From Nitrospirota bacterium (GTDB lineage Bacteria; Nitrospirota; Thermodesulfovibrionia; Thermodesulfovibrionales; Dissulfurispiraceae): DNA of 32,000 nucleotides. Positions 10,308-32,000 of the stretch are shown piece by piece (within the stretch, counting starts at the first letter, position 1; every line of letters begins with the position of its first letter). Location of the stretch: assembly GCA_040752355.1 (NCBI GenBank), contig JBFMHE010000006.1, positions 76,721-108,720 of the forward strand. Direction: 5' to 3'. The position numbers and the translations under genes were made by a program. The notes below the pieces were generated by a model. The model did no database searches and was not told the DNA's origin. It worked only from the letters and a program-made list of their open reading frames with translations.

Positions 10308-10341
10308 TTCCCGCCGGAACCCGGTCCCCACGGAGACGCTT

Positions 10342-11142
10342 ATGGCAAAAGAAACGAAGCCGGAGAGAAGACACGACAGAAAGCTCGGTGACGAGTGGTC
10401 CGACTGGGACGGCAGCAGCGGAGGGGAGCAGGGCATCGACGAGCGCCTCTCCACCTTCTTCGTCCTCGCCCTCTGCATACTGCTCGTCACGCTCGCCCTC
10501 ATTCCGGCAGGATGGTATTTGATAAAGCCGAGGGTGGTACAGCTGAGCCCGTCCCTCTCGGCAGTAATCGAGTGGTCTGTCCTGGCCGTGATCGGTGTCG
10601 TCTTCTTCATGGCGGCAGCCGAGGGGATCGCTTTCACGGTCTTCAGGAGGTCCCTGCTTCCCTACCGCTGGACAGAGCGGCTGCTGCTCGCCCTTCTTCC
10701 CGGGGCCGTCTGGCTCGGCGGCAAGCTCGGTATCAGCAGGGATAGGGTGGGCAGCTCATTCATCAAGGCGCACAACTCGCTCCTCGCGAGCAACCGCGGG
10801 GCAGTGAGTACCGAGCGGCTGCTGGTCCTGCTCCCGCGCTGCCTCAGCAGAGAGACGAGGGGTCATATCCTGGAGCGGTTCGGCGGCAGCAGCGCAGAGA
10901 TCGTCACCGCGGGAGGAGGAGAGGAAGCGAGAGCGGCGATCGCCAAACACCGGCCCACCCTCATCCTCGCCCTCGCCTGCGAGCGGGACCTGATGAGCGG
11001 ACTGAAGGACGTGGCGGAGAAGATACCCGTCCTCGCCGTGCCGAACAAAAGACCTGAAGGCCCCTGCAAGAACACGCTCGTCTCCCGTGAAGTGCTGGAT
11101 GAGGCGCTGCAGGTCATTTCCCACAGAGAAGAGGTTCGATGA
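10342..11142 (+). CDS. DUF116-like membrane protein (variant lacking the central Cys cluster)
   Basis: Two N-terminal TM helices. The C-terminal domain has LLPRCL, LALACERDL and EGPCKNTLV motifs resembling DUF116 (LPHCL...VAC..eL...gC.nT). ATGA overlap with the hpnH start (11139-11142). Confidence 0.5.
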   Translation: MAKETKPERRHDRKLGDEWSDWDGSSGGEQGIDERLSTFFVLALCILLVTLALIPAGWYLIKPRVVQLSPSLSAVIEWSVLAVIGVVFFMAAAEGIAFTVFRRSLLPYRWTERLLLALLPGAVWLGGKLGISRDRVGSSFIKAHNSLLASNRGAVSTERLLVLLPRCLSRETRGHILERFGGSSAEIVTAGGGEEARAAIAKHRPTLILALACERDLMSGLKDVAEKIPVLAVPNKRPEGPCKNTLVSREVLDEALQVISHREEVR

Positions 11143-12158
11143 GGTTTCCGGCGAGTCTCCATAGCGCCCTCACCCGCTGCTTCGTGCGCAACGCCCTCGC
11201 GGGCAGGAAGCGCTTTCCCCTGGTGCTCATGCTCGAGCCCACGCACCGCTGCAATCTCGCCTGCGCGGGCTGCGACCGGATACGGCTCCACCAGGAAGAG
11301 CAGGCCGCCGGTCTCTCGGCCGATCTATCGCTCGAGGAGTGCATCGACGCAGCGGTCGCCTCGGCCACACCGGTAGTGACCGTCACCGGAGGAGAGCCGC
11401 TGCTCTACCCCCGGCTCGTGCCCCTGGTGAGCGAGCTCCTGCGCATGAAGCGGCATGTCTATCTCTGCACCAACGGCATACTCGCCGGGTCCTTTATCGA
11501 TGTCTTCGCCCCTCATCCGCGGCTGACCCTGAATATCCACCTCGACGGCATGGAAAAGACCCACGACCGCGTCACGAACAGGGAGGGCGCCTTCAGGAGC
11601 GCCCTCCTCGTCATCCAGAAGGCGAAACAGAAGGGCTTCAGGGTGAGCACCAACACCTCGGTGTACAAGACGACCGACCCTGCCGATCTGGAGCGGCTCT
11701 TCGCCCTGCTCAAGAGGCTCCGTGTCGACGGGATCCTCGTTGCGCCGGCCTTCAGCTACGAGCGTGTCGAGGACGACATCTTCCTGAGCAGGGAGGAGGC
11801 GGTCGAGCGCTTCGGCATGATGGCCCGTCTGCTCGCGGAGACGCCCATCATGAACTCGCCCGTATACATGGAATTTCTGCAGGGGAGACGGGAGCTCCGC
11901 TGCACTCCCTGGGGCAACCCTACCCGCAACCCCCTCGGCTGGAAATCCCCCTGCTACCTGATCACGGACGGGTACTACCGCTCGTTCGGCGAGATGATGG
12001 AAAAGACGGCGTGGGACCGCTACGGGACGGGCAACGATCCCCGCTGCCGCGACTGCATGGTGCACAGCGGGTATGAGGCGACGGTGACGCGGCTCGCCTT
12101 CTCCGATCCGAGGGTGCTGCTCAGGCTCGCCCGATGGAATATGCAGCGGCCGCAATGA
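11139..12158 (+). CDS. hpnH: Adenosylhopane synthase, radical SAM protein HpnH
   Basis: RFPLVLMLEPTHRCNLACAGC, VTGGEPLLYP, and a C-terminal CTPWGNPTRNPLGWKSPCYL...CRDCMVHSGYE region (DUF3463-like). This is close to characterised HpnH sequences. Confidence 0.9.
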   Translation: MRFPASLHSALTRCFVRNALAGRKRFPLVLMLEPTHRCNLACAGCDRIRLHQEEQAAGLSADLSLEECIDAAVASATPVVTVTGGEPLLYPRLVPLVSELLRMKRHVYLCTNGILAGSFIDVFAPHPRLTLNIHLDGMEKTHDRVTNREGAFRSALLVIQKAKQKGFRVSTNTSVYKTTDPADLERLFALLKRLRVDGILVAPAFSYERVEDDIFLSREEAVERFGMMARLLAETPIMNSPVYMEFLQGRRELRCTPWGNPTRNPLGWKSPCYLITDGYYRSFGEMMEKTAWDRYGTGNDPRCRDCMVHSGYEATVTRLAFSDPRVLLRLARWNMQRPQ

Positions 12159-13024
12159 TCGACCGGGTCGTCTCGCTGCTCGCCGGCACGCTCTTCCTGC
12201 GGCCCTACGTGGCCGCCTTTTTCATTGTCTATCTCCTCGGCTGCTCGCTCCACCTCGGCATGAAGCGGGCGCTGCTCTTCGGCCTGATCGGCTACGGCAT
12301 CGCCTGGCTTTCGGAGCTCTCGTCCATCCATACCGGCATCCCCTACGGCGATTACTTCTACATCGAGACGACCAGGGGACAGGAGCTCTGGGTCCTCGGG
12401 GTGCCGCTCATGGATTCGGCGAGCTATGTGTTCCTCGCCTATGCGAGCTACTCCATGGCGCTGCTCGTGACCGCCCCGGTCATCCTCGTTCGCAAGCTCC
12501 CGTACCTCCTCGAGACGAGGGCGCTCAGGAGCGGGCTCTCCGTACGCCTCCTCGGCGCGCTCTTCTTCGTCTATCTCGATATCATCATCGACCCTGTCGC
12601 CCTGCAGGGGAGCCGCTGGTTCCTCGGCCAGATCTACGGCTACCCGGAGCAGGGTGTCTATTTCGGCGTGCCGATCTCGAACTTCATCGGCTGGTTCATT
12701 GTCGGGTTCCTCATGATCTGCGCCCTCCAGCGGATCGACGCGTTTCTCTACCGGAGGAACGCGCCTGATTGCGCCGGCTACGCCTATCCCTGGCGCTATC
12801 TCATCGGGCCCGCTCTCTACGGCAGCGTGCTGCTCTTCAACCTGGCGGTCACCTTTGCGATTGAAGACTATACGCTCGGGTGGGTAGGGATCTTCATCAT
12901 ACTGATGCCGGCGGTGCTGCTCGTCCGGCTCGTCAGGATGAAGTACCTGCACGGAGCGAACGATGAAGCGCTGAAGGCTCACCTCAGGGACTTCCCCGAG
13001 GCTGCAGTCCCCGGCTCGCAGTAG
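12155..13024 (+). CDS. Polytopic membrane protein, DUF422 / carotenoid-biosynthesis-protein (CruF-like) family
   Basis: About 7-8 TM helices. The motif HTGIPYGDYFYIETTRGQELWVLGVPLMDSASY resembles the TG.PFG.Y.Y...GVP signature of PF04240-type proteins. Start is chosen at the ATGA overlap with the hpnH stop (12155); the alternative is 12134. Confidence 0.5.
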   Translation: MIDRVVSLLAGTLFLRPYVAAFFIVYLLGCSLHLGMKRALLFGLIGYGIAWLSELSSIHTGIPYGDYFYIETTRGQELWVLGVPLMDSASYVFLAYASYSMALLVTAPVILVRKLPYLLETRALRSGLSVRLLGALFFVYLDIIIDPVALQGSRWFLGQIYGYPEQGVYFGVPISNFIGWFIVGFLMICALQRIDAFLYRRNAPDCAGYAYPWRYLIGPALYGSVLLFNLAVTFAIEDYTLGWVGIFIILMPAVLLVRLVRMKYLHGANDEALKAHLRDFPEAAVPGSQ

Positions 13025-13791
13025 GACTGCCGCATCCCGCTCAGGGCCTGCACCGCGCGCCAGAGCTGCATCGAGGCGGTCCGCGCGTTACGCCCCATTC
13101 TTATGCTGCAGGGAATGAGCCGGGGGTTCAGCAGGAGCCTGCGGAGGGCGCGGGAGGACCGGTATACGCCCTGCTCGTCCGTTACCGCAAAGAGCTCGGG
13201 GGGAATATCTTCCTCCGCGCTGTCGGTAACCGCCCGCACCGCCAGGAAGGGGATATCCTTGTTCACGGCATAGCGGGCCAGGGGATAGGTCTCCATATCG
13301 CATACGGGATGGGGGAGATCTTTCGGTATATGCGGCGCGAGAGCAGCCTTCGTCATCCTCTCGCCGATGGTGATAATGCTGCCCTCGCTGGCATCGAGCA
13401 TGCGGGCAATGCAGCGGACCGCTCCCCCTGCATCGGGGAGCTGGAGCGTATCTTTTATCATTGGTATCATCGGCATCCCGGGAGCGCCCGCCACGAGAAG
13501 GGAGACGCTCCGCGCGATGACGAGATCGCCGGTCGAAAGCCCGGGCCGCAGAGCGCCGCCGAACCCTATCGAGACGAGGCATCCGGGCGCATACGCATTG
13601 CAGACCTGCTCTACTGCGGCTTCGGCATTGCGCACTCCCATGCCGGTCCGGACTATGATGAGCTCATGAGCAGCGCAGGAACCGGAATACAGCGTAAAAG
13701 GAGGCGCCTTCGCGCGCAGCCTCACCGCAGCGGTCTTTCTTTTTATCTGCGCGATCTCCTGGGGGAATGCGGCAAACAGGGCTATCTTCAT
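12979..13791 (-). CDS. hpnG: Hopanoid-associated PNP/MTAN-family nucleosidase HpnG
   Basis: MKIALFAAFPQE...IIVRTGMGVRNAEAA...SIGFGGAL shows a PNP_UDP_1-type fold. Start is taken at the internal Met (13791), preceded by GGGAAG; the ORF track start is 13845. Convergent 46-nt overlap with the DUF422 gene. Confidence 0.7.
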   Translation of the reverse strand: MKIALFAAFPQEIAQIKRKTAAVRLRAKAPPFTLYSGSCAAHELIIVRTGMGVRNAEAAVEQVCNAYAPGCLVSIGFGGALRPGLSTGDLVIARSVSLLVAGAPGMPMIPMIKDTLQLPDAGGAVRCIARMLDASEGSIITIGERMTKAALAPHIPKDLPHPVCDMETYPLARYAVNKDIPFLAVRAVTDSAEEDIPPELFAVTDEQGVYRSSRALRRLLLNPRLIPCSIRMGRNARTASMQLWRAVQALSGMRQSYCEPGTAASGKSLR

Positions 13792-13893
13792 CTTCCCGGC
13801 ACGCTCGGCGCTGAATAACGGTCCATCGGCAAACGAGCACGTCATAAAAATTATAGCAGCTCAATCTCCACAGGGCCACAACCTAATGCAGTA

Positions 13894-14160
13894 GGGGTGT
13901 AATAAAAAGGTGACAAGAGGGAGGCAAGGCGGAGGAGGGGAAGGGGGTAGGGGAGGAGCAAATCGGGAGTATTTCGTGACGGCTCTTAGCGAAATGGAGC
14001 GTTAGGCTGCAGCACCTGTCTGAGGTCGGTGCGACCGAGTTGTGCTGCGGCAGCGTAATGAGCTTAGAGCCGTAGAAATCTCCCGTCTGAGCGGAGCCCC
14101 TGCCCTCTTCCCCGGCACCACATTGAGTGAGATGCTTGCCACCACCTTATAATTACACCC
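13894..14160 (+). other. About 267-nt imperfect foldback: candidate structured RNA or palindromic MITE
   Basis: Pairings read directly from the sequence. GGGTGTAAT 13895-13903 pairs with ATTACACCC 14152-14160. AAGGTG 13907-12 pairs with CACCTT 14143-48. GGCAAG 13923-28 pairs with CTTGCC 14135-40. GGGGAAGGGGG 13937-47 pairs with CCCTCTTCCCC 14103-13 (one G-U). GGGAG/ATTTC 13965-75 pairs with GAAAT/CTCCC 14075-84. ACGGCTCTTAGC 13979-90 pairs with GCTTAGAGCCGT 14062-73. GCTGCAGCAC 14006-15 pairs with GTGCTGCGGC 14042-51 (one U-G). The apical hairpin is GGTCG-GTG-CGACC at 14024-36. No ORF. Confidence 0.5.
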
Positions 14161-14218
14161 AAGTAGTTAATGCAAGTGCTTCATTGCATTTGTCCCTGAT
14201 TTCTGCTGTGATTTAAGT

Positions 14219-15382
14219 ATGATCGAGACTATTCTGGTGCTGCTCATTGCAGGCGGGAGCCTTTACCAGCTCTTTTCGCTCTTCTGCATCGTCTCTTTCT
14301 TCGGGCCCGGGATCACCGCGCAGGAAGAGGACACCGCGCTTCCCGCAGTATCCCTGCTGAAGCCCCTCTGCGGCACGGACCCGGAGCTGGAGAAGAACAT
14401 AAGGAGCTTCTGCGATCAGGACTATCCCGAATACGAAGTGCTCCTCGGATTTACCGACCCCGATGACAGCGGCCTGCCCGTTGCACGAGAGCACGCGCGC
14501 TCTCCGGAATGCATGCTCCGCGTTGTCGTAAGCTCCGGGACTCTCGGAACGAACCGCAAAGTATCCAACCTGCAGGGCCTCGCAGAGGCGGCGCAGTATC
14601 CGCTCCTGGCGATCAGCGACAGCGACATGAGAGCAGAGCGTACGTACCTTCGGCGGATCATTGAAGAATACCGGGCCGGCCGCCGGCGCGGGAGCAACGT
14701 CGGGCTGGTAACTTCACTCTACAAGATTTCCGATCCCCGCACCCCCGGCGCCGCTCTCGAGTCGCTCACGCTCGCCCTCGATTTCATACCCGCCGTGCTC
14801 GCGGTAGAACGCATGGAAGGGGTCACCTTCGGCCTGGGCGCTTCGATGCTCCTCTCGAAGCAGGCCCTCGAGGAGGTCGGGGGCTTCCCGGCCATCGCCA
14901 ACCACCTCGCCGACGACTACCAGATCGGCAACCGCTTATCGAAAAAGGGGTACGCCGTCGTCCTCTCGAAGTACGTGCTCGAAGACATTGCGGGCCCGAT
15001 GCGCATTGACGATCATGTCACCCATCAGCTCAGATGGGCGCGCACCTACCGGGCGTGCAGGCCGAAGGGTTACTGGGGGTACGGCGTCACCTATATCGTC
15101 CCCCTCGCCCTCCTGCTCCTCGCGGTCGAGGGGCCGACGCCTCGCGCGCTCTTGCTGTTCGGCGGGACCCTGGCGCTGAGACTGCTTACGGCGTTTGCGG
15201 TCTATCGGCGCATCATCCGCGCTCAGCGATGGCTGCGGTGGCTTCCGCTCATTCCGCTGAAGGATATACTGAGCTTCGGCATCTGGTTCCGGAGCCTCTG
15301 GGGGAATACGGTTCGCTGGAGAGGAGCGACGTTCCGCGTAGTAAAGGATGGATTGATCGAGCCGCTCCCCGAACGGCGCTGA
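14219..15382 (+). CDS. hpnI: Hopanoid-associated family-2/21 glycosyltransferase HpnI
   Basis: N-terminal TM helix, then PAVSLLKPLCGTDPELEKNIRSFCDQDYPEYEVLLG (ceramide-glucosyltransferase-like GT21 signature), ISDSDM (DxD) and QLRWARTYR (Q/RxxRW-like). 387 aa. Confidence 0.75.
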   Translation: MIETILVLLIAGGSLYQLFSLFCIVSFFGPGITAQEEDTALPAVSLLKPLCGTDPELEKNIRSFCDQDYPEYEVLLGFTDPDDSGLPVAREHARSPECMLRVVVSSGTLGTNRKVSNLQGLAEAAQYPLLAISDSDMRAERTYLRRIIEEYRAGRRRGSNVGLVTSLYKISDPRTPGAALESLTLALDFIPAVLAVERMEGVTFGLGASMLLSKQALEEVGGFPAIANHLADDYQIGNRLSKKGYAVVLSKYVLEDIAGPMRIDDHVTHQLRWARTYRACRPKGYWGYGVTYIVPLALLLLAVEGPTPRALLLFGGTLALRLLTAFAVYRRIIRAQRWLRWLPLIPLKDILSFGIWFRSLWGNTVRWRGATFRVVKDGLIEPLPERR

Positions 15383-21594: not shown

Positions 21595-23128
21595 TCCGGA
21601 GTATAACCCTGACCGCCTCATCCAGGCTGTTGACAGTGATGTCCGCATGCGCCGACGACTGCTGCTTGCCTGTCGTGACGAGTATCGCCGTGGCGCCTGC
21701 CGCCTTTGCGGTGAGCATATCGTCGTCCTTGTCGCCGACCAGATAGGAACGCTGCAGATCGATGCCGTGCTCTGCACGTGCCCGAACGAGCATGCCCGGC
21801 TCCGGCTTCCTGCAGGAGCAGTAGTCGTCCGGCCCGTGGGAACAGTAATAAAACGCATCGAAACCAAACTCCTCGGTGAACATCCGGTTCACCTCTTTCA
21901 CGAAGGCCTCGTTGACGATCCCGCGGGAGACACCCGACTGGTTGCTCACCCCGATAAGGGCGAACCCCGCGTCTTTCAGTACGCCGAGGCGCTCCACACC
22001 CGGGAGCAGCTCGAAATCCTCCCACCTCTTCAGATAGTGCGCGTCCCTGCAGAGGGTGCCGTCGCGGTCGAAGAAGACCGCGGGCCTCTTCGGCAGCAGC
22101 TCCTTGACCGTAAAAAAGACCTCTTCCGAAGTAATGGTATACATGCAGCGGAGGTCGCCGGTGTCACAGGTGCGTTCGAAGCAGGGGCCGCACGAAAAGC
22201 CCTTCCTGACGATCCTGTTGCCGTACCCTACGGGCCCGGTAAGCTGCGGCGAGGTCGAGCCGAAGATCGTCACCAGAGGCGTGCCCACGGCATAACCGAG
22301 ATGCATCGGCCCTGAATCGTTGGTGACGAGGACATCGCAGGCAGCGATCAATGAGATGAGCTCTCGCACCGTCGTCCTCCCGGAGAGACTCAGCAATGCG
22401 CGATGCCCGACGCCCGACGCCTCACTCCCGATAAGCTTCTCGATCTCTTCCGCCGTCGCCGCCTCCTTCGGCCCTCCGAAGATGACGACGCCGCCCCCTC
22501 TATCCTTGATGAACCACTGCGCGACCTCTGCGAAGCGCTGCGGCAGCCAGCGCTTGGCAGAGCCGTAGGCAGCCCCGGGATTGATGCCGAGAATCGGCCG
22601 GGGAAGCGCGGCGAGCCTCTCCCGGGCGGTCCTCCTCTCGTCGAGGGAGAGCCGAATCCAGGGCTGCTGGTAAAAGACCGGCATACCGACCGCTTTGAGG
22701 AGCGTCAGGTAGTAGGCGATGTGGTGAATCTTCCGGTCCTCGCCGTTGAACGAGACGGGGTGGGTCAGGAGAAAGCCCCTCCGGTCCCTGTCATAGCCGA
22801 TGCGCTCGGGTATCCCCGCGAGAAAGGCGAGCAGCGCGGCATCGAAGGCGTTCTGGAGGAGGATCGCCTTCGAGAAGTGTTTCTTCCTGAGGCGGTAGGC
22901 GAGCTTGAAGCGCCCGAAGGCGGTCCGGAAGCAGTCCTCATAGAGAATGATCTCATCGACAGCGGGATCTCTTTCGAAGACAGGGGCCACGGAGGGTTTC
23001 ACGAGCAGACTGATCGGAGCGTCCGGAAAGGCCTTGCGCACGCTCCAGAGGGCGGGCATGGTCATCACGGCGTCGCCGATCCAGTTGACCCCGCGGACAA
23101 GAATGGACGATGCGGTATTCCCGGACAT
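21575..23128 (-). CDS. Fusion protein: GT9 heptosyltransferase (WaaF-like) plus HAD-IIIA D,D-heptose-1,7-bisphosphate phosphatase (GmhB-like) domain
   Basis: The N-terminal part has ILVRGVNWIGDAVMTMPAL and TNDSGPMHLGYA (GT9). The C-terminal ~170 aa has AVFFDRDGTL (DxDGT nucleophile motif), GVSNQSG, a C..H.....C.CRKP zinc/loop motif and GDKDDDM (HAD motif IV). Confidence 0.75.
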   Translation of the reverse strand: MSGNTASSILVRGVNWIGDAVMTMPALWSVRKAFPDAPISLLVKPSVAPVFERDPAVDEIILYEDCFRTAFGRFKLAYRLRKKHFSKAILLQNAFDAALLAFLAGIPERIGYDRDRRGFLLTHPVSFNGEDRKIHHIAYYLTLLKAVGMPVFYQQPWIRLSLDERRTARERLAALPRPILGINPGAAYGSAKRWLPQRFAEVAQWFIKDRGGGVVIFGGPKEAATAEEIEKLIGSEASGVGHRALLSLSGRTTVRELISLIAACDVLVTNDSGPMHLGYAVGTPLVTIFGSTSPQLTGPVGYGNRIVRKGFSCGPCFERTCDTGDLRCMYTITSEEVFFTVKELLPKRPAVFFDRDGTLCRDAHYLKRWEDFELLPGVERLGVLKDAGFALIGVSNQSGVSRGIVNEAFVKEVNRMFTEEFGFDAFYYCSHGPDDYCSCRKPEPGMLVRARAEHGIDLQRSYLVGDKDDDMLTAKAAGATAILVTTGKQQSSAHADITVNSLDEAVRVILRNEDGRD

Positions 23129-23232
23129 CCTCTAGTTTACCATGAGCAGGCCCTGCTGCCGATAGCAGGGGGAGGCACTGAAGAGCCGGGCCGAGAGCTG
23201 TTAAGAAAAGACTTGACAAGGCTAGTTCTAAT

Positions 23233-23265
23233 TTGATAAAAATTATCAAACGATAATCATTATAA
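23233..23265. promoter_or_regulatory. Two operator-like palindromes (Fur/PerR-type boxes) upstream of the Fur-family gene
   Basis: TTGATAA-AAA-TTATCAA (23233-23249) is a perfect 7-3-7 inverted repeat. cGATAATcATTATAA (23251-23265) matches 13 of 15 positions of the 7-1-7 PerR/Fur box TTATAATnATTATAA. A TTGACA at 23213-18 and a TATAAT at 23261-66 are nearby. Confidence 0.6.
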
Positions 23266-23287
23266 TCTAAACAAGGGCGAGGTGATC

Positions 23288-23689
23288 ATGAACAAGACAA
23301 GAGAGAGGGGGCTCAAGCTGACGCCGCAGCGGATGGCGATTTTCGACTATCTCAGGGACAATACCGACCACCCTTCGGCAGAGGACGTTTATGCCGCGGT
23401 CTCGAAGAGGTTCCCGACCATGTCCTTTGCGACGGTCTACAATACGCTCGAGACATTGCGGAAGAGGGGAGAGGTGCTGGAGCTCACGATCGATGCGGAC
23501 AGGAAGCGCTTCGACCCGAACACGCATCCGCACCACCATCTTATCTGCATACACTGCAAACGGATCGTGGATATCCATAGCGAGTTCGAGCTCTCCCTCT
23601 CCGGCAAGGACAGGGCCGATTTCGAGGTAGTCGGCAACCATGTGGAGTTTTACGGCGTATGCGGCAATTGCAGGAAAAAGAAGAGTTAG
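23288..23689 (+). CDS. Fur-family metalloregulator, PerR-like by context
   Basis: LKLTPQRMAIFDYL...HPSAEDVY is a winged helix. HHHLICIHCKRIVD and CGNC supply the structural Zn CxxC pairs. It is followed by peroxide and oxygen detoxification genes. The ATG at 23288 lies 6 nt after GAGG; the track uses the GTG at 23282. Confidence 0.8.
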   Translation: MNKTRERGLKLTPQRMAIFDYLRDNTDHPSAEDVYAAVSKRFPTMSFATVYNTLETLRKRGEVLELTIDADRKRFDPNTHPHHHLICIHCKRIVDIHSEFELSLSGKDRADFEVVGNHVEFYGVCGNCRKKKS

Positions 23690-23782
23690 CTTTTATCGGC
23701 GATTTTTTTCCTGTAGAATTTTTATTAGGGTTTAAGGAGTCCTTGGCTCCTGATTGCATACCATCGGAAGAGGTCTATCATT

Positions 23783-24391
23783 ATGGAACACGTATGCTGC
23801 GGATTGAGAGTGGGACAGACGGCGCCGGACTTCACGATCGAGACCTTCGAGCCTACCCGGGGGGATTTCGGCGAGAGGAGCCTCGCGGAACAGAAGAAGG
23901 CGGGGAAGTGGACTATTCTCTTTTTCTATCCCGCTGATTTCACCTTTGTCTGAGCGACCGAATTCGCTGATCTGGCGGATCAGTACGAAAACATCAAGGC
24001 AGCGAACGCCGAGTTGATCACGGTGAGCACCGATACGAAATTCGTTCACCTCGCCTGGAAGACGAGCGAAAAGCTCCTCGAGAAGGTTAAGTACCCCATG
24101 GGAGCGGACCCGACCGGCAGGCTCTCGCGGCTTTTCGGCATTTATGACGAAGAGACCGGGCTGGCGCTCAGGGGAACGTTCCTCATCAGCCCCGACGGCA
24201 AGCTCCTCGGCTCGGAAGTCAACTTCTACAATGTGGGAAGGAATTCCGAGGAGCTACTCCGGAAGCTGCAGGCGAGCGACTATCTCAGGGGAGCCCCTGA
24301 AGAGGCCTGCCCCGCCCGGTGGACCAAGGGAGAAAAAACGCTGAAGCCGTCTGCCGAGATGGTCGGCAAGGTGTATGAGGCCCTGCAGTAG
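23783..24391 (+). CDS. Typical 2-Cys peroxiredoxin (AhpC/Prx1 type) with selenocysteine (UGA at 23951-23953) at the peroxidatic position
   Basis: Own translation in one frame gives MEHVCCGLRVGQTAPDFTIETFEP...KWTILFFYPADFTFV-[TGA]-ATEFADLADQYENIKAANAELITVSTDTKFVHLAWK...EEACPARWTKGEKTLKP. The TGA replaces the Cys of the universal DFTFVCPTE motif. The resolving Cys is in the VCPA.W-like motif. The ORF track shows only the C-terminal half (24014-24391). Confidence 0.75.
23963..23989 (+). promoter_or_regulatory. SECIS-like hairpin downstream of the in-frame UGA
   Basis: TTCGCTGATC (23963-72), loop TGGCG (23973-77), then GATCAG-TA-CGAA (23978-89). This gives a 10-bp stem with a 2-nt bulge. The stem starts 9 nt after the UGA and the G-containing apical loop starts 19 nt after it. 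Confidence 0.55.
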
Positions 24392-24524
24392 GCCGGCCGC
24401 TCATAGAGCAACAACTATCATAGCGAGGGTGTCATGGTTCAGGGGATTTCATTGCCTGAAAAGGGAGCTTTCAGCTCCGATTTAAACGGGTCGATGCTTA
24501 TCTCATTCGATCGAGGAGGATGTC

Positions 24525-24968
24525 ATGTGCGTTGCGTGTGAACGAAGGTGCAGGTGCGGCAGCCGGTCTGCGAGCTTTCATTTCAAGGACAATGTCCTGT
24601 CGGACCGGGTCGTGCGGGAGCTCTACTGCCCCTCCTGCTCGCCGGGGATAACCGTGGACCCGGCGAGCATGGTCGCCGATAACGGGTGGGTGATCGAGCT
24701 CGATATGGAGGTCGCGGCATTCATGGGGCGCTGCCTTCCTTTTCCGGCGCTCACGCCGGATATCCTCTTCGATGAGGGCTACTGCAGCTGGAACGGCATG
24801 TATCCCGGCGACCATATCGACTGCATCAGGGAGCGGGAAGCCATTGTACCCCTCGCGAAGTCGGACCCTGCACGATACCTCAAAGAGATGAGGTTGTGGG
24901 CGACGCAAAGAAATGATAGACTCTCTGCTGAAGGATGGAGAAAGGCGCGGAAGCCGACTGCGGTATAG
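24525..24968 (+). CDS. Cys-rich hypothetical protein (147 aa)
   Basis: GAGGAGG SD 5 nt before the ATG. The N-terminal MCVACERRCRCG ... CPSC resembles a zinc-ribbon-type arrangement. 9 Cys in total. No family recognised. Confidence 0.5.
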   Translation: MCVACERRCRCGSRSASFHFKDNVLSDRVVRELYCPSCSPGITVDPASMVADNGWVIELDMEVAAFMGRCLPFPALTPDILFDEGYCSWNGMYPGDHIDCIREREAIVPLAKSDPARYLKEMRLWATQRNDRLSAEGWRKARKPTAV

Positions 24969-25056
24969 ATGAGAGGAGCGGCTCCTGGCCGGCACACAGC
25001 GCGGTCCGTCCGGGAGGGATGCTCGTCATTACTAACTATGAACGGAGGTTGAGGGG

Positions 25057-26271
25057 ATGAAGGCAGTAGAGATCAAGAACGGAATCTACTGGGTCGGCGC
25101 GATCGACTGGGCGGTGAGGGACTTCCACGGGTACGAGACGCCCCGCGGCACGACCTACAACAACTATCTCGTCATGGACGACGAGATCACTCTGATCGAT
25201 ACGGTGAAGCACGACTTCGCCGAGGTGATGCTCAAGAACATCCGGAGCATCGTCGACCCGTCGAAGATCAGGCATATGGTGGTGAACCATATCGAGAACG
25301 ATCATGTGACGAGTCTCGGCCGCATCATGGAGCTCATTCCCCACGCCACGGTTTACATAACCGAAAAGGGCAGGAAAGGGCTCGAAAAGTTCTTCGATAT
25401 CGCCAAATGGAACATGAAGGTCGTCAAGAGCGGCGATACGCTCACGATCGGCAAGAGGACGCTCCTCTTTCTCGAGACCCCCATGCTCCACTGGCCCGAC
25501 TCGATGATGACCTACATAAAAGAGGACAAGCTCCTCATCAGCCAGGACGGCTTCGGCCAGCATATCGCCTCCGCCGTCCGCTTCGACGACGAGTTCGTCA
25601 CCTGCGAATCGATGGCCGAGCTCGAGGACGCCGTGATCGATTACTACGCCAATATCCTGATGCCCTTCGGCCAGCTCATCAAGACGAAGGTGGCCGAGAT
25701 CCAGAAGCTCGGCCTCGAGATCGATATGATCGCGCCCGACCACGGCGTCATCTGGAGGGCGAACCCCGGGAAAGTGCTCCAGATGTATCTCGATATGGCG
25801 GGCGGCAGGGCGGCCCGCTGTGTCTCGATCATCTACGATACGATGTGGCACAGCACGGAGCAGATGACCTCTCCCATCATGCAGGGCGTAAAGGACGAGG
25901 GCTGCGACTGCAAGGTGATCAAGCTGAGGGCCACCCCGATGAGCGTCGCGATCAAGGAGTTCTGGAAGGCCCGGGGCTGCCTCGTCGGCACGCCGACGCT
26001 GAACAACATCATGTACCCCTCGGTCGCCGAGTTCCTTACGCATTTGCGGGGCCTCCGTCCGAAGAACAGGATCGTCGGCGCCTTCGGGAGCTACGGCTGG
26101 GGAGGCGGCGCCGTGAAGGAGGCGTACGAGGAGTTCAAGAGGATGGGCCTCGAGACCTTCGATCAGGGCCTGCAGGTCCTCTACCGCCCCTCGGCAGAGG
26201 ATGAGGCGAAGTGCTACGATTTCGGAAGGGCGTTTGCGCGGACAATGAAGGAATACCACGAGAAATTCTAA
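25057..26271 (+). CDS. Flavodiiron protein (FprA / rubredoxin:oxygen oxidoreductase class A)
   Basis: The metallo-beta-lactamase-like N-domain carries the diiron ligand motif NHIENDH, plus HWPDSMMTY. The C-terminal domain is flavodoxin-like (SIIYDTMWHSTEQM, GSYGWGGGA). 404 aa. Confidence 0.85.
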   Translation: MKAVEIKNGIYWVGAIDWAVRDFHGYETPRGTTYNNYLVMDDEITLIDTVKHDFAEVMLKNIRSIVDPSKIRHMVVNHIENDHVTSLGRIMELIPHATVYITEKGRKGLEKFFDIAKWNMKVVKSGDTLTIGKRTLLFLETPMLHWPDSMMTYIKEDKLLISQDGFGQHIASAVRFDDEFVTCESMAELEDAVIDYYANILMPFGQLIKTKVAEIQKLGLEIDMIAPDHGVIWRANPGKVLQMYLDMAGGRAARCVSIIYDTMWHSTEQMTSPIMQGVKDEGCDCKVIKLRATPMSVAIKEFWKARGCLVGTPTLNNIMYPSVAEFLTHLRGLRPKNRIVGAFGSYGWGGGAVKEAYEEFKRMGLETFDQGLQVLYRPSAEDEAKCYDFGRAFARTMKEYHEKF

Positions 26272-26299
26272 CGATCGGATAAAACTGGCAGGAGGATTC

Positions 26300-26794
26300 A
26301 TGGGAACAGCGATGAACGATTTAATGGCGGCATTCGCCGGGGAGAGCCAGGCGAACAGGAAGTATCTCGCCTTTGCGAAGAAGGCGGAGCAGGAAGGCTT
26401 TAAGCAGGCTGCCAAGCTCTTCAGGGCTGCTGCCGAGGCGGAGACGATTCATGCCCACAACCACCTGAGGGAGGCGGGTGGCATCAAGAGCACGCGGGAG
26501 AACCTCGAGGCTGCCATCAACGGCGAGGTCTACGAGTTCGAGAAGATGTACCCCGAGATGATCAAGGATGCCGAGAGAGAGGGCAATAAAGGAGCGCTCC
26601 GCTCGTTCACGTTTGCGAACGAGGTCGAGAAGGTCCATGCAGCGCTCTACAAGAAGGCGCTCGAGAGCCTCGGCAGCGCTGCCGAGACCGACTACTACGT
26701 ATGCGGCGTCTGCGGCCATACCGTGGAAGACGAGGCGCCCGACACCTGCCCGGTCTGCGGCGCGAAAAAGCAGGCATTCAAAAAAGTGGACTAG
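26300..26794 (+). CDS. rbr: Rubrerythrin
   Basis: The N-terminal ferritin-like diiron domain has AGESQANRKY and EAETIHAHNH / NGEVYE..MY / EVEKVHAALY. The C-terminal rubredoxin-like domain has CGVCGH...CPVCGA. AGGAGG SD present. Confidence 0.9.
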   Translation: MGTAMNDLMAAFAGESQANRKYLAFAKKAEQEGFKQAAKLFRAAAEAETIHAHNHLREAGGIKSTRENLEAAINGEVYEFEKMYPEMIKDAEREGNKGALRSFTFANEVEKVHAALYKKALESLGSAAETDYYVCGVCGHTVEDEAPDTCPVCGAKKQAFKKVD

Positions 26795-26852
26795 ACATTC
26801 CATGCCGGGGGAGCAGCAGGCGAGGCGAACCATTTCCCTGAAAGGAGTTTTT

Positions 26853-28394
26853 ATGAGACCGGCACTTAAACAGATTTTTCCGTTCCTGGCATCACTGTTT
26901 CTCTTGTCCCTGTTCCCGCTCTCGGGCGGTGCGGCAGGAGCTGCAGAGATGAAGGGCGATGCCGCCCCGCTGAGCCCCCAGACCCAGGCATGTATCGACT
27001 GCCACAAGACGTATACCCCCGGGATCGTCCATGACTGGCTCTCGAGCAGACACGCGAAGACGACCCCTGACGCTGCGCTGAAGAAGCCGGCCCTGCAGCG
27101 GAGGATCTCCGCTGCAAAAGTGCCGGACGACCTCTCCCCGTACGCGGTCGGCTGCTATGAGTGCCACAGCAGGAATATCGAAAAGCATAAAGACAGCTTC
27201 GACCACATGGGCTACCGGATCAACGTGATCGTCAGTCCCCATGACTGCAAGACCTGCCACCCCGTCGAGGCCGACCAGTTTGCCGGGACCAAAAAGGCGC
27301 ATGCAGTCAAAAACCTCATGAGCAATCCTGTTTATCACTCTCTGGTAAGCACGATTACCGGCGTCAAGGAGATCAAGGACGGGAAGATCTCGGCGAAAGA
27401 GCCTTCGAACGCGGCGCTCATGGACTCCTGCCTCGGCTGTCATGGGACAAAGGTCGAAACCAAAGGTATGAAAAAGGTCTTCACCAGGATGGGCGTCGTG
27501 GAAGTGCCTGAGCTCACCAATTGGCCCAACGAGGGCGTCGGCAGGGAGAACCCCGACGGCAGCCTCGGCTCCTGCTCATCGTGCCATGCGCGCCATTCCT
27601 TCTCGATCGAGACAGCGAGAAAGCCCTACACGTGCGGCCAGTGCCATCTGGAGCCCGATGTCCCCGCCTACAACGTCTACAAAGAGAGCAAACACGGCAA
27701 TATCTTCGAATCGAAGTACCACGAGTGGGATTTCAGCGCCGTGCCCTGGACCGTGGGAAAGGACTTCACCGCGCCGACCTGCTCCACCTGCCACAACAGC
27801 CTCATCGTTTCACCGAGCGGCGACGTGCTGGCCGAGCGGAGCCATGATTTCGGCGCGCGCTTGTGGGTGAGGATATTCGGCCTCATTTACAGCCACCCCC
27901 AGCCGAAATCGGGAAATACGACTCTTATAAAGAATAAAGACGGCCTGCCGCTGCCCACGACCTTTGCCGGAGAGCCGGCAACCGAACACCTTATCACCGC
28001 GTCGGAGCAGGAGAAGCGGCAGGGAGTGATGAAAGGTGTCTGCAACGGGTGCCACGGCACCAACTGGATCAACGGCCATTTTGCAAAGTTCGACACCACG
28101 GTGCAGGAGACCGACGCCATGGTGCGCGCAGCTACCGCTCTCATGTCCGATGCATGGAACAGCAAGATCGAGGAGCCGACCAATCCGTTCGATGAGGGGA
28201 TCGAGGAGATGTGGATAAAGCAGTGGCTCTTCTACGCAAATACCGTGCGGTATTCCTCTGCCATGACCGGCGCGCCGGACTATGGCGCCTTCAAGCTCGG
28301 CTGGTGGGAGATGACCAACAATCTGAGAAACATGAAAGACCTCATAAATCTTAAGAAAGCAGTCAAGTCCCTCAGCGAGAAAGAGGCAAGATGA
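26853..28394 (+). CDS. Secreted octaheme c-type cytochrome, hydroxylamine-oxidoreductase (HAO)-like family
   Basis: Signal peptide MRPALKQIFPFLASLFLLSLFPLSGGAAGAAE. Eight CxxCH motifs: CIDCH, CYECH, CKTCH, CLGCH, CSSCH, CGQCH, CSTCH, CNGCH. The CGQCHLEPDVPAYNVYKESKHG block resembles HAO-family proteins. AAAGGAG SD precedes the ATG at 26853. The track start at 26568 overlaps rbr. Confidence 0.7.
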   Translation: MRPALKQIFPFLASLFLLSLFPLSGGAAGAAEMKGDAAPLSPQTQACIDCHKTYTPGIVHDWLSSRHAKTTPDAALKKPALQRRISAAKVPDDLSPYAVGCYECHSRNIEKHKDSFDHMGYRINVIVSPHDCKTCHPVEADQFAGTKKAHAVKNLMSNPVYHSLVSTITGVKEIKDGKISAKEPSNAALMDSCLGCHGTKVETKGMKKVFTRMGVVEVPELTNWPNEGVGRENPDGSLGSCSSCHARHSFSIETARKPYTCGQCHLEPDVPAYNVYKESKHGNIFESKYHEWDFSAVPWTVGKDFTAPTCSTCHNSLIVSPSGDVLAERSHDFGARLWVRIFGLIYSHPQPKSGNTTLIKNKDGLPLPTTFAGEPATEHLITASEQEKRQGVMKGVCNGCHGTNWINGHFAKFDTTVQETDAMVRAATALMSDAWNSKIEEPTNPFDEGIEEMWIKQWLFYANTVRYSSAMTGAPDYGAFKLGWWEMTNNLRNMKDLINLKKAVKSLSEKEAR

Positions 28395-28963
28395 AAGTCG
28401 CCGCGTTCCAGGGCAGTCCGCGCATCGAGGGGAACACGGACCTCCTGCTGCGCGGGGCGGTGCGCGCCATAGACGAGGCCGGGCACGAGATACAGCTCTT
28501 CAAGCTCAATTACATGAACATCAAGCCCTGCCAGAACTGCGGGGGCTGCGATAAGACCGGGCAGTGTATCGTCAAAGACGATATGGAAGAGATTTATCAG
28601 GCGATACGGGAGGCAGACAGGATCATCCTCGCCTCCCCTATCTTCTTTTTCGGCGTCAGCGCGCAGGCGAAGATGATGATCGACCGGTGCCAGGCCTTCT
28701 GGTGCGAGAAGTATCTGCTGAAGAGAGAGATCCCCGCAGGCCCCGCGGGAAGAAAGGGGCTCCTGCTGCTGGTGGGCGGCATGAAAAAAGAGATCGGCAT
28801 TCAATGCTCGGAAGCCACGGCAAAGGCTTTCTTCAGGACCATCAGTGTTCCCGGGCATGAAACACTAGGCTATCTGGAAGTAGATGCAAAAGGAGACATC
28901 CTCAAACACCCGACCGCATTACGCGACGCCTATGAGGCGGGAAAGAGACTCATCACGTCATAA
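28391..28963 (+). CDS. Iron-sulfur flavoprotein (Isf) / NADPH-dependent FMN reductase-like
   Basis: MKVAAFQGSPRIEGNT is a flavodoxin-like FMN site. The compact Cys cluster PCQNCGGCDKTGQC is as in Isf-type [4Fe-4S] flavoproteins, followed by ASPIFFFGVSAQ. ATGA overlap with the cytochrome stop (28391-28394). Confidence 0.7.
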   Translation: MKVAAFQGSPRIEGNTDLLLRGAVRAIDEAGHEIQLFKLNYMNIKPCQNCGGCDKTGQCIVKDDMEEIYQAIREADRIILASPIFFFGVSAQAKMMIDRCQAFWCEKYLLKREIPAGPAGRKGLLLLVGGMKKEIGIQCSEATAKAFFRTISVPGHETLGYLEVDAKGDILKHPTALRDAYEAGKRLITS

Positions 28964-28979
28964 TACCGAGGAGGAGAAC

Positions 28980-29312
28980 ATGACCGTGCAGCCAGGACAG
29001 TTACCGGAGCAGTACAAGAGCATCAAGAAGAGGTTCAGTAAATATTTCAAGGCGCTCGAGAATTTCGGCAAAGCAGCGCGCGAGGCAGGGCCGATCGACG
29101 ACAAGACCGCCCATCTCATTCAACTGGCGGCTGCTGCCGCCGTATGGTCGCAGGGCTCTGTCCACTCCCATGCGCGGAGGGCGCTCGAAGCCGGAGCCAC
29201 GCCCGATGAGCTGCACCACGCCATCATCCTGATCTCGAGCACTGTGGGCTTCCCCAATGTGTCTGCGGCATTGAGCTGGGTCGACGACCTCCTGCGGCAC
29301 CACAAGGGCTGA
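28980..29312 (+). CDS. Carboxymuconolactone decarboxylase (CMD/AhpD-like) family protein lacking the CxxC motif
   Basis: IDDKTAHLIQLAAAAAVWSQGSVHSHARRALEAGATPDELHHAIIL follows the CMD-family helix pattern, but Ser occupies both positions of the usual CxxCxxxH. GAGGAGGAG SD precedes the ATG at 28980. 110 aa. Confidence 0.6.
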   Translation: MTVQPGQLPEQYKSIKKRFSKYFKALENFGKAAREAGPIDDKTAHLIQLAAAAAVWSQGSVHSHARRALEAGATPDELHHAIILISSTVGFPNVSAALSWVDDLLRHHKG

Positions 29313-30263
29313 TTGACTCCCCCGTCTCCCGGGTATATCCAGCTCTTCCCGACGCTGCACTGCAACCAGCAGTGCAGCTTCTGTTTCAACCGCGGCATCA
29401 CCCGACAGCCCGGCGGCCTTACTGCCGCCGGGCTCGAGCAGCTCGTCCGGCGCATTGCAGAGGCGGGCATTCCCGCGCTCGATATCCTCGGCGGAGAGCC
29501 GACGCTCCATCGCGACCTCTACGGACTGCTCGGCAGCGCGGTCGAATACGGACTGCGCGTCACTATGAGCACGAACGGCTCCGACCCGGCAGCGCTCCGG
29601 AGGATCAGGCACTCCTTCGGAGACAGCGTCGCCATAGGGATATCGCTCAACGGCGAGCCCGTGAGCGCCGGGCTCCACGACTTCATCGTTGCGTACCGCC
29701 CCCTGCTCAAGAGTCTGTATGAGCCGCGGTCGCGGCTGCTCCGGCAGCGCCTGCGGGCGTATGCCGGTCTGGCCGGCACAACCTACTATCTCCTCTACCG
29801 GGACGCGCTCACCTCCGAGGACCTCGGTCGCAGTATTCCTCTTCCGCGCTTTCTGGACGCCGCACGCTCGCTCCGGAAGCGCTACGCGGGTATCGATACC
29901 GTCTATTGCTCGGGCTTTATCCCCAATGCAACGGATCACTCTCTTACGGAAAGCGCCAGATGCCCTGCGGGATCCGCGAAGCTCTCGGTGATGCCCGACG
30001 GCTCCGTTTATCCCTGCTACCTTCTTTTCAGGCATAAGGAGTTCATGCTCGGCAACATACTGACGGACGATATCGCCGGCATCCTGGCGCATCCGGCGCT
30101 CGACTGGTTCAGGACCTTTGCCGGGAACCGCTGCCCGGACACCGGCTGCAGGCTCTTCTCGCGATGCCGCGGGGGATGCCCTGCCGTCAGCCTCCTCGTC
30201 TGTAGCGACCTCACCGCCCCCGACCCCCGCTGCATCCGTCCGGCTATCGGTGGAGGGCGATGA
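29313..30263 (+). CDS. Radical SAM enzyme with a full C-terminal SPASM domain
   Basis: CxxxCxxC is in [15 protein letters not shown], followed by GGEPTL. SPASM cysteines are [19 protein letters not shown] ... [16 protein letters not shown] ... C. The only available start before the cluster motif is TTG at 29313, immediately after the CMD stop and in the same frame. Confidence 0.75.
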
Positions 30264-32000
30264 GGGCGCCTATCTCGTCGGCAGGGACAGGCCTGCTGAA
30301 GAGGTATCCCTGTACCGCGTCGCAGCGGCTCGCCTTCAGGAACGAGAGCTGGTCATCCGTCTCGACCCCTTCGGCAACGACCTGCAGCTTCATCGTGTGC
30401 GCCATCGCGATGACCGCCGTAACAATCGCCTGATCATCGGGGTCGTCGCTCAGGCCGCTGATGAACGATTTGTCTATCTTGATCCTCCGGATGGGCAGCC
30501 GCTTCAGGTAGCTCAGCGACGAATAGCCGGTGCCGAAATCATCGATCGAGAGCCCGATGCCCCTGCTGCTCAGGTTGGCCAGGTGGGGGATGGTGATATC
30601 GATATGCTGCATCGCGATACTTTCCGTCACCTCGATCTCGAGGCACTCGGGACGCAGCCCCGTCTCCTCCAGGGTCCGCGAAACCACCTCGACGAGATCG
30701 GCCTGCTGGAACTGCCGGGCGGAGAGGTTCACCGTCACGCAGAGCTCCCGGTATCCTGCATCCTGCCACTGTTTATTCTGCGCACAGGCGGTGCGCAGCA
30801 CCCATTCATCGATCGAAACGACGAGCCCCGTCTCTTCGGCAAGGGGAAGGAACTGGAACGGCTGGAGCATCCCGAGCTCGGGATGCCGCCACCGGACGAG
30901 CGCCTCGACGCAGGTAATGCCGGGGCGTTTCAGATCGATCTGGGGCTGGTAGTGGAGCTCCAGCTGTCCCTTCTTGAGGGTCTGCCGCAGGCTCTGCTCG
31001 AGGATCATCAGCTCGAGGGTCCGCAGGTTCATGGCAGGACTGTAGAACCGGTAGTTGTTCCTCCCCTGCTCCTTCACATGGTACATCGCGACATCGGCGT
31101 TCTTCAGCAGCATCTCGGGATACTCGCTGTCATCCGGGTACATGCTTATGCCGATGCTGGCGGTAATATGAAACTCGTGCCCGTCGAAGTGGTAGGACTG
31201 ATCGAGGATCATCCGGAGCTCCTGCGCAATCCTGGCCGCGCTGTCGGTATCCGCGATATCGGGCAGCACGATGGCGAACTCATCGCCGCCGATGCGGGCG
31301 ATCGTATCGGACGCCCGCAGGCAGTTCCTCAGCCGTGAAGCGACCTCCCTGAGGAGCCGGTCGCCGGCAGCATGGCCGAGAGAATCATTGATATTTTTAA
31401 AACGGTCGAGGTCGAGGAAGAGGACCGCAAGCTTGGCGCGATGGCGGCGCGCCTGGGCGATCTCGAGGGAAAGGCGGTCCATGAAGAGCGTTCTGTTCGC
31501 TACGCCGGTCAGGAGATCGTGATAGGCCTGGTACCTGATCGTCTCTTCGGCCTGCTTCCGTTCGGTGATATCGGTGATCATGCCGAGGGCCCCTGCATAC
31601 GCTCCCTCCTTGTCGAAGAGGGAATTCGTCGAGACGATGGCCCAGAGCGCCGAGCCGTCCTTTCGCCGGAACCGGAAATCGTGCTGCTCGGCAATGCCGT
31701 CCCTGCGGCGCGCGAGGTTCAGTTCCGCTTCCTGCCGGACCTCCTCATCCATGAAGTCGAAGAGCGGCCGCCCCAGCATCTCCTCTGCGGCATAGCCGAG
31801 CATTTCGGTCATATGCCGGTTGACATAGGTTGTGAGGCCCTGCGCATCGACGATCCAGACTCCTTCGTTCGCTGTATCGATGAGCTGGCGGTAGCGGGCC
31901 TCGCTCTCCCTGAGCGCCTCCTCGACCCTGCTCCGTTCGGCTATTTCGGTCTGGAGGCGCTTGTTGGCGAGCTTAAGGTCCGCGGTGCGCTCCTGCACCA
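30244..32000 (-). CDS. PAS-GGDEF-EAL signalling protein (partial, N-terminus outside window)
   Basis: A coiled-coil/PAS region ([21 protein letters not shown]), an intact GGDEF ([11 protein letters not shown]), and an EAL domain ([21 protein letters not shown]). The frame is open to the window edge. The track start is a GTG at the edge, not a real start. Confidence 0.85.

Follow-up and report, generated by a model that had tools for sequence, protein, structure and literature searches.

A stretch of 32,000 nucleotides from a Nitrospirota bacterium (contig JBFMHE010000006.1 of GenBank assembly GCA_040752355.1), referred to here as the window, carries four adjacent genes at 26853-30263 that encode an octaheme cytochrome, the flavoprotein Isf, a CMD-domain protein, and a radical S-adenosylmethionine enzyme with a SPASM domain (rSAM). 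These four genes are likely the distal part of an oxidative and nitrosative stress operon of nine genes and about 7 kb in an anaerobic Nitrospirota bacterium, with a PerR-repressed promoter and a compartment-wise removal of oxidants. The quartet is the distal end of a same-strand cluster with the order perR, a putative selenocysteine peroxiredoxin (Prx), u147, flavodiiron protein (FDP), rubrerythrin (Rbr), cytochrome, Isf, CMD protein, and rSAM. The nine genes are probably read as one transcript from a promoter 5' of perR that PerR would repress.

Within this mix-and-match cluster, each protein would remove oxidants in its own compartment. Exposure to oxidants would cause PerR to release the promoter. 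In the cytoplasm, the selenocysteine Prx, Rbr, FDP, and Isf would reduce peroxide, O2, and NO, as expected from what is known of their families. In the periplasm, the cytochrome would reduce nitrite, hydroxylamine, or NO, and possibly peroxide, by homology with the octaheme cytochrome IhOCC. The CMD protein and the rSAM would act as accessories.

PerR-regulated clusters of anaerobes contain rubrerythrin, flavodiiron protein, peroxiredoxin, and superoxide reductase. The window cluster is similar: it has a PerR-like regulator with operator-like palindromes, and genes for Prx, FDP, and Rbr come after it. Homologous loci add superoxide reductase, rubredoxin, and glutaredoxin. It differs in the addition of the periplasmic octaheme cytochrome, Isf, the Cys-less CMD protein, and the rSAM. 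To our knowledge, these four have not been described in PerR stress regulons, and no relevant paper came up in literature searches for the combination. In other respects, the cluster is recognizable as a variant of known PerR-type stress operons. The original prediction, made on the four genes from their sequence, had suggested a reductive detoxification role, and the conserved placement behind PerR, Prx, FDP, and Rbr supports it. The partnership between cytochrome and rSAM proposed at the same time fails, and the headline of a novel four-gene system is weakened.

Organization of the four-gene tail

The four open reading frames (ORFs) all lie on the + strand, as given by the ORF listing and by direct reading of the junctions. 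The cytochrome gene (26853-28394) has an ATG start with GGAG upstream and encodes a Sec-type leader and eight CxxCH motifs. The Isf gene (28391-28963) starts with an ATG that overlaps the cytochrome stop codon as ATGA. The CMD gene (28980-29312), with GGAGGAG upstream, follows after a gap of 16 nt. The rSAM gene (29313-30263) starts with a TTG right after the TGA of the CMD gene, leaving a 0-nt gap, and the N-termini of 24 homologs align at the same place as this TTG start. Every domain call was backed by Pfam: Multi-haem_cyto and Cytochrome_C554 for the cytochrome, FMN_red for Isf, CMD for the CMD protein, and Radical_SAM and SPASM for the rSAM. Inspection of the translations found no hydrophobic N-terminal leader in Isf, the CMD protein, or the rSAM.

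The coordinates, the overlap, and the two gaps of the original prediction were reproduced. Its description of the module as spanning two compartments also held, with a predicted signal peptide on the cytochrome only and eight CxxCH motifs in that protein, and the translation of the CMD protein contains no Cys, as had been said. The tight packing is real and is kept in the three closest relatives, L081, L083, and L164, which were found by exact-protein look-up. In these three loci the overlap between the cytochrome and Isf genes is retained or replaced by a 1-nt gap. The CMD and rSAM genes abut in the window, L081, and L164, and they are separated by no more than about 30 nt in L083, L002, L008, L017, L064, and others.

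Conservation of the gene neighborhood

A genome scan with the rSAM alignment gave 80 loci, one per species. The nine window proteins were mapped onto these loci, the neighboring proteins were clustered, and the contexts were placed on the rSAM tree. The order cytochrome-Isf-CMD-rSAM was found in L002, L017, L019, L022, and L028 and in the three closest relatives, which retain the longer order FDP-Rbr-cytochrome-Isf-CMD-rSAM. Isf-CMD-rSAM without the cytochrome was found in eight loci, including a group of magnetotactic Nitrospirota with superoxide reductase and glutaredoxin in the cluster. A more distant rSAM clade (35% identity) showed the order rSAM-FDP-CMD-(Rbr)-cytochrome-Isf, and FDP-cytochrome-rSAM was found in two loci (L073 and L076). 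Three gene orders in three rSAM clades indicate that the rSAM has been kept beside stress genes.

Neighbors within 6 kb were counted in the 45 rSAM loci that are flanked by 3 kb or more on each side. The CMD protein and FDP were each found in 13 of them, Isf in 12, Rbr in 11, and the cytochrome in 9. The reciprocal scan in metagenomes, with the Ser-type CMD protein to which the window protein belongs, gave 56 loci, 15 of them well-flanked. The rSAM was directly downstream of the CMD gene in 6 of the 56 and within 6 kb in 6 of the 15. The CMD gene usually ends clusters with Rbr, Prx, Isf, FDP, or the cytochrome, mostly without the rSAM, or stands elsewhere. Four look-ups were centered on the cytochrome; three gave PerR/FDP/Rbr clusters with Isf downstream, one with the rSAM and two without it, and the context of the fourth was unrelated.

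Each of the four genes occurs without the others, and together they do not form a discrete system. A fixed four-gene module was rejected by these reciprocal neighborhood counts. The co-occurrence expected for such a module was found as the full order in the closest relatives, but every gene is separable. The contexts fit a modular cluster in which an Rbr-(cytochrome)-Isf core and a CMD tail would be common building blocks. The cytochrome would be an optional periplasmic addition with Isf nearly always downstream of it, and the rSAM an optional terminal or leading accessory. As judged from gene order, such clusters frequently end with the Ser-type CMD protein as an accessory.

Several points weigh against the stress-operon reading. 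Co-transcription and PerR control are deduced from the sequence. The regulator gave its best NCBIfam match, to the PerR family NF052545, at 137 bits, under the cut-off of 180. The cluster encodes no dedicated electron donor for the periplasmic cytochrome, whose electrons would therefore come from the pool of periplasmic cytochromes or hydrogenase. No substrate was identified for the rSAM or the CMD protein. In 28 of the 45 rSAM loci, none of CMD, Isf, cytochrome, FDP, and Rbr is near the rSAM, so the link between rSAM and defence could be a lineage-specific synteny of Nitrospirota rather than a function.

The last point bears on a housekeeping or otherwise unrelated role of the rSAM, possibly together with a second rSAM/SPASM enzyme and a Cys-rich 120-aa protein, in which the position at the operon end would be inherited synteny. 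Such a role is possible but less likely than not. It is consistent with the 28 loci without stress genes and with whole rSAM clades that adjoin an HhH-GPD glycosylase and Smr, or UbiD, or a putative HD-GYP-type protein and a TatC-like gene. The second rSAM, partly with the Cys-rich protein, recurs in about 20 loci of Nitrospirota and Desulfobacterales, and the stress-cluster association is limited to Nitrospirota-labelled records with the single exception of L019, a metagenome-assembled genome (MAG) labelled Chloroflexota. However, the rSAM stays close to FDP and CMD in three gene orders and down to 35% identity, and its stop-start abutment with the CMD gene is conserved. These two observations speak against an unrelated role.

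Two of the other rSAM contexts were described further. In the rSAM clade of L040-L050 (e.g., L040:~6000-8891), two same-strand genes always lie upstream of the rSAM gene, one for an Smr-domain protein and one for an HhH-GPD glycosylase-like protein that ends in a winged helix; this is a DNA-repair-type context. The second rSAM/SPASM is longer (about 385 aa, with an N-terminal extension of 85 aa) and stands beside the rSAM in L072:4475-9011 and in L007, L013, L015, L069-L080, L091, L093, L126, and L138. Some of these loci add the Cys-rich 120-aa protein (c10), a small ferredoxin, and ferritin-like proteins. Neither Pfam nor NCBIfam gave a family for c10. A search of the window for the second rSAM, c10, and the ferritin-like protein c7 gave only weak (30%) matches to rSAM genes of a hopanoid cluster, and the second rSAM and c10 are absent from the window.

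Octaheme cytochrome

The N-terminus of the cytochrome, MRPALKQIFPFLASLFLLSLFPLSGGAAGAAE, resembles a Sec signal peptide. The eight heme motifs are CIDCH, CYECH, CKTCH, CLGCH, CSSCH, CGQCH, CSTCH, and CNGCH, and every Cys and His in them is invariant in 17 homologs. The comparison with PDB entry 4QO5, which is IhOCC, gave an E-value of 3.3e-133 in two stretches covering most of the protein, and the family-profile search against the same entry gave 1.8e-167. The next PDB matches were the Tyr-less kustc0458-type HAO (6H5L), true HAO, and HDH, with E-values of 1e-8 to 1e-19 over the heme 5-7 region only. The eight motifs and the homology to a solved member place the cytochrome in the HAO/IhOCC family, and these matches identify it as a new member of the IhOCC clade. 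IhOCC is described as an octaheme nitrite reductase of the same clade as HAO/HDH without a P460 heme (PMC9250108). The Ignicoccus hospitalis protein, Igni_0955, is reported to be reduced by hydrogenase (PMC4429474).

The original prediction had raised the presence of the cross-linking Tyr of HAO, and the family profile was aligned with NeHAO via hhalign. The invariant Phe480 aligns with Tyr467 of NeHAO, and the P-x4-[Y/F]-x2-GW spacing is identical; the NeHAO query was checked against three published segments and their numbering, and the alignment carries moderate confidence. Three residues before Phe480 there is a Tyr (Y477), where IhOCC has Trp, and this Tyr leaves a small doubt on the absence of the cross-link. 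Direct sequence alignment of the cytochrome C-terminus with HAO in the PDB gave no result. Together, moderate evidence suggests that the HAO Tyr cross-link is absent, and the Tyr that marks P460-type HAO was not found at its position in this cytochrome.

The cytochrome is similar to IhOCC (Igni_0955, 4QO5) in its eight heme motifs and in having no Tyr at the HAO cross-link position. It differs in being bacterial (Nitrospirota), in lying inside a PerR/FDP/Rbr stress operon, and in its translational coupling to Isf. Many public records (P0137, P0143, P0144, P0166, and others) call this cytochrome family hydroxylamine oxidase or hydroxylamine dehydrogenase. To judge from the stress-operon context and from the Phe in place of the cross-linking Tyr, the name hydroxylamine oxidase is probably misleading for the IhOCC-type family. 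Such cytochromes, which often carry that annotation in Nitrospirota MAGs, are found here between rubrerythrin and Isf in PerR-type clusters. This placement speaks for detoxification in the periplasm, not for energy metabolism, and calls for caution in using these genes as nitrification markers.

Maturation of the cytochrome apoprotein by the rSAM before export, by analogy with QhpD and QhpC, had been one of the original proposals. The shared operon in the window and the closest relatives, and the rSAM directly after the cytochrome in L073 and L076, would agree with it. However, no cytochrome is nearby in 36 of the 45 rSAM loci, and the cytochrome is found in the same type of operon without the rSAM in L090, L165, and L167. 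No rSAM-dependent modification of IhOCC was found in the papers searched, which did not include the primary structure paper. Given these counts, the rSAM would be a cytochrome maturase only with very low probability.

Isf and the Ser-type CMD protein

Isf matched Pfam FMN_red at 80.8 bits (cut-off of 24), consistent with a flavodoxin-like FMN reductase fold. The motif that defines Isf is a compact [4Fe-4S] motif, CX2CX2CX4-7C (CX2CX2CX5-7C as defined in PMC3164229), and it was read in the window protein as C47-QN-C50-GG-C53-DKTGQ-C59. The protein is similar to the Isf of Methanosarcina thermophila in its length of about 190 aa, its FMN_red fold, and its CX2CX2CX5C motif, which is likewise compact (residues 47-59); the gene context is not alike. 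No significant match to PDB entries named Isf was obtained, and the best PDB match was 1RLI with an E-value of 2e-9.

The CMD protein matched PF02627 at 60.6 bits (cut-off of 23) and carries the CMD domain. The canonical CxxCxxxH is replaced by SQGSVHSH (SxxSxxxH), and the catalytic CxxC of AhpD is thus missing. The two Ser residues are encoded by TCG and TCT and are therefore not selenocysteine. The Ser pattern was present in 22 of 25 translated homologs of related loci; of the rest, two end before the motif and one is out of frame. S57, H62, H64, R66, R67, and H80 are invariant in 15 homologs, and position 60 is Ser or Ala. The score with the PcaC equivalog TIGR02425 was 21.6 bits against a cut-off of 155.7. 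By its motif, the CMD protein is a member of a conserved and uncharacterized Ser-for-Cys subfamily of the CMD/AhpD fold.

A known pair, the TIGR04169 'peroxidase-like' CMD protein and the radical SAM enzyme ArsS, likewise places a small CMD-fold protein beside an rSAM gene. However, the CMD protein of that pair has CxxC, its rSAM has DUF3641 rather than SPASM, and the window CMD protein scored 16.6 bits with TIGR04169 (cut-off of 120). A pair of this kind, a DUF3641 radical SAM (ArsS-like) with a CxxC-type CMD protein, was observed at L167:9658-10971 (- strand) beside a homologous PerR-FDP-superoxide reductase-Prx-Rbr-cytochrome-Isf-glutaredoxin cluster. This gives a second case of a CMD gene paired with an rSAM gene close to stress genes; it was rejected as the same system by the difference in domains and motifs.

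Radical SAM/SPASM enzyme

The rSAM carries the cluster motif CNQQCSFC (C17, C21, and C24) and scored 52.7 bits with PF04055 and 37.2 bits with PF13186, which places it in the radical SAM superfamily with a SPASM domain. Eight conserved C-terminal Cys residues (199, 217, 235, 274, 279, 285, 289, and 307) are enough for two auxiliary clusters. The cluster motif is preceded by only 16 residues, too few to hold an RRE domain.

The original prediction had named AhbD/NirJ, anSME, QhpD, and an unnamed SPASM clade as candidate families. By NCBIfam scores the rSAM falls within no named family. Among the matches listed (25 of 59), no cut-off was reached; the best score was 78 bits for MftC (cut-off of 265), and PqqE (41 against 381), anSME (32.9 against 349), and StsB (59.5 against 625) were also far from theirs. 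QhpD is not among these matches, and the cluster contains no qhp genes. The features of MftC, PqqE, anSME, sactipeptide, and ranthipeptide maturases, i.e., a score above the cut-off, an RRE or PqqD-like partner, and a precursor, were not found. Small ORFs in 24391-24525, the largest gap of the operon and the only one scanned, included no plausible precursor peptide. No fusion proteins were found among the 120 rSAM homologs listed.

The AlphaFold2 model of the rSAM (pLDDT 80) has its nearest folds in SuiB, anSME, PqqE, and CteB, with TM-scores of 0.63-0.74 and identities of 17-19%. All four of these enzymes modify peptides or proteins. The rSAM resembles anSME, SuiB, and PqqE in its CxxxCxxC core, its full SPASM domain with eight conserved Cys residues, and its best structural matches (TM-scores of 0.65-0.74 for these three); it differs in scoring under all curated cut-offs and in having neither an RRE domain nor a precursor peptide nearby. 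By these comparisons, the rSAM is a member of an uncharacterized, unnamed family without an RRE domain.

It had also been suggested that the rSAM is an AhbD-like heme-forming enzyme that supplies the cytochrome. AhbD and NirJ also belong to the SPASM-type enzymes and are close to the rSAM in size, and the family search detected a weak similarity to them. However, the scores were 42.9 bits for AhbD (TIGR04545; cut-off of 500), 44.9 for AhbC (cut-off of 650), and 35.1 for NirJ (TIGR04051; cut-off of 515). No ahbA, ahbB, ahbC, or nir genes are present in the window, the upstream 15 kb of which is a hopanoid cluster, and the rSAM is usually found without the cytochrome. The AhbD/NirJ assignment was rejected on the NCBIfam scores and the lack of ahb genes, and a heme-forming role is hardly credible.

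A further explanation is that the rSAM matures the adjacent CMD protein, or another operon protein such as FDP, by a cross-link or by oxidation of, for example, Ser57/Ser60; anSME, to which this idea is analogous, acts on Ser or Cys. The 0-nt gap between the CMD and rSAM genes in the window, L081, and L164, and their spacing of up to about 30 nt in several other loci, point in this direction. So do the position of CMD and FDP as the commonest rSAM neighbors, the predicted fold, which is like that of the protein-modifying anSME without an RRE, and the invariant Ser at the usual Cys position of the CMD protein. Against it, the Ser-type CMD protein has no adjacent rSAM in 50 of the 56 CMD loci, the rSAM has no CMD protein nearby in 32 of the 45 rSAM loci, no fusions were seen among the listed homologs, and no modification motif is known. 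Because most loci of either family lack the other close by, such maturation is not an obligatory step for the CMD protein. Maturation of the CMD or another operon protein keeps some plausibility because the genes are translationally coupled and the rSAM stays near FDP and CMD through three gene orders, but overall it is unlikely. The original proposal of a maturase thus fared differently for its two targets: the cytochrome is contradicted by the co-occurrence counts, and the CMD protein stays a candidate.

Within the stress-operon reading, the anSME/SuiB-like architecture without a peptide-recognition domain suggests that the rSAM most probably acts on a protein, peptide, or cofactor that serves in defence. 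In this reading it is neither a cytochrome maturase nor a heme synthase. A more specific form of this idea is that it installs a modification or cofactor on a component of anaerobic oxidant defence, either by itself or jointly with the Cys-rich protein and the second rSAM/SPASM, with the invariant Ser of the CMD protein or a residue of FDP as candidate targets. This form is speculative and rather improbable. If it were true, it would reveal a previously unknown radical-SAM-dependent catalytic group for the detoxification of peroxide or NO. Two uncharacterized families, the Ser-type CMD protein and a compact rSAM/SPASM without a recognition domain, are tied by these clusters to the oxidant defence of anaerobes. 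That oxygen-defence clusters of three different gene orders retain a radical SAM enzyme, which is itself oxygen-labile, offers a concrete lead.

An inverted repeat with perfectly matched 10-bp arms and a loop of 5 nt (GCTGCACTGC AACCA GCAGTGCAGC) was observed inside the rSAM gene at 29354-29378. It lies 40 nt past the start of the gene, covers the codons for CNQQC in the cluster motif, and was marked as terminator-like by the scan. This repeat may be chance or an attenuator of rSAM expression. At its 3' end, the rSAM gene overlaps by 20 nt with a convergent gene (30244-31998, - strand) for a putative diguanylate cyclase/phosphodiesterase-like (GGDEF-type) protein of 584 aa.

Promoter region and upstream genes

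The promoter-like region at 23213-23263 (+ strand) was identified by reading the sequence. TTGACA is located at 23213-18, and Fur/PerR-box-like palindromes are located at 23234-48 (TGATAAAAATTATCA) and 23253-63 (ATAATCATTAT). The only + strand sigma-70-like matches in 22900-30600 lie in this region just upstream of perR, and the scan of the same interval found no convincing internal terminator across the nine-gene run. Palindromes of the same types, TGATAA-N3-TTATCA and/or ATAATNATTAT, recur 5' of perR in L074, L028, L017, L030, and L115. The perR gene (23282-23689, + strand) encodes a PerR-like member of the Fur family, for which NF052545 was the best match, and is syntenic with the cluster in L017, L019, L028, L030, L036, L164, L165, and L167.

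The peroxiredoxin gene (23783-24391, + strand) matched Pfam AhpC-TSA in its N-terminal part and contains an in-frame TGA at 23951-23953. In the translation FTFV*ATE, this TGA sits at the position of the peroxidatic Cys. Homologs have FTFVCATE or FTFVCPTE, or the identical in-frame stop, which was found in six other loci. The peroxiredoxin is probably a selenoprotein with selenocysteine at the peroxidatic position. This assignment is based on the Cys/stop alignment among homologs and not on the selenocysteine insertion sequence (SECIS) test, in which the fold 3' of the TGA was a hairpin with a non-significant z-score.

The u147 gene (24525-24968, + strand) encodes a conserved Cys-rich protein of 147 aa that contains MCVACERRCRCG and YCPSCS and matched no Pfam or NCBIfam family. 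It was recognized by synteny, which extends to L024, L025, L033, L036, L066, L090, and L160, and it occurs with FDP in several Nitrospirota stress clusters. The FDP gene (25057-26271, + strand) encodes an O2/NO reductase type protein with a flavorubredoxin-type NCBIfam match of 405 bits, under the equivalog cut-off, and its homologs carry Lactamase_B, ODP, and Flavodoxin_1. The rubrerythrin gene (26300-26794, + strand) matched the nigerythrin and rubrerythrin families of NCBIfam, and a homolog carries Pfam Rubrerythrin and RUBY_RBDX.

Farther upstream, a hopanoid biosynthesis cluster at 468-15382 contains HpnN, HpnJ, an HpnK-like gene (214 bits, under the cut-off of 232.6), squalene-hopene cyclase, HpnA, HpnH, and HpnI. 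This cluster, which is not one for heme biosynthesis, also holds an unassigned radical SAM gene (4726-5859) and a gene resembling CruF (12134-13024).

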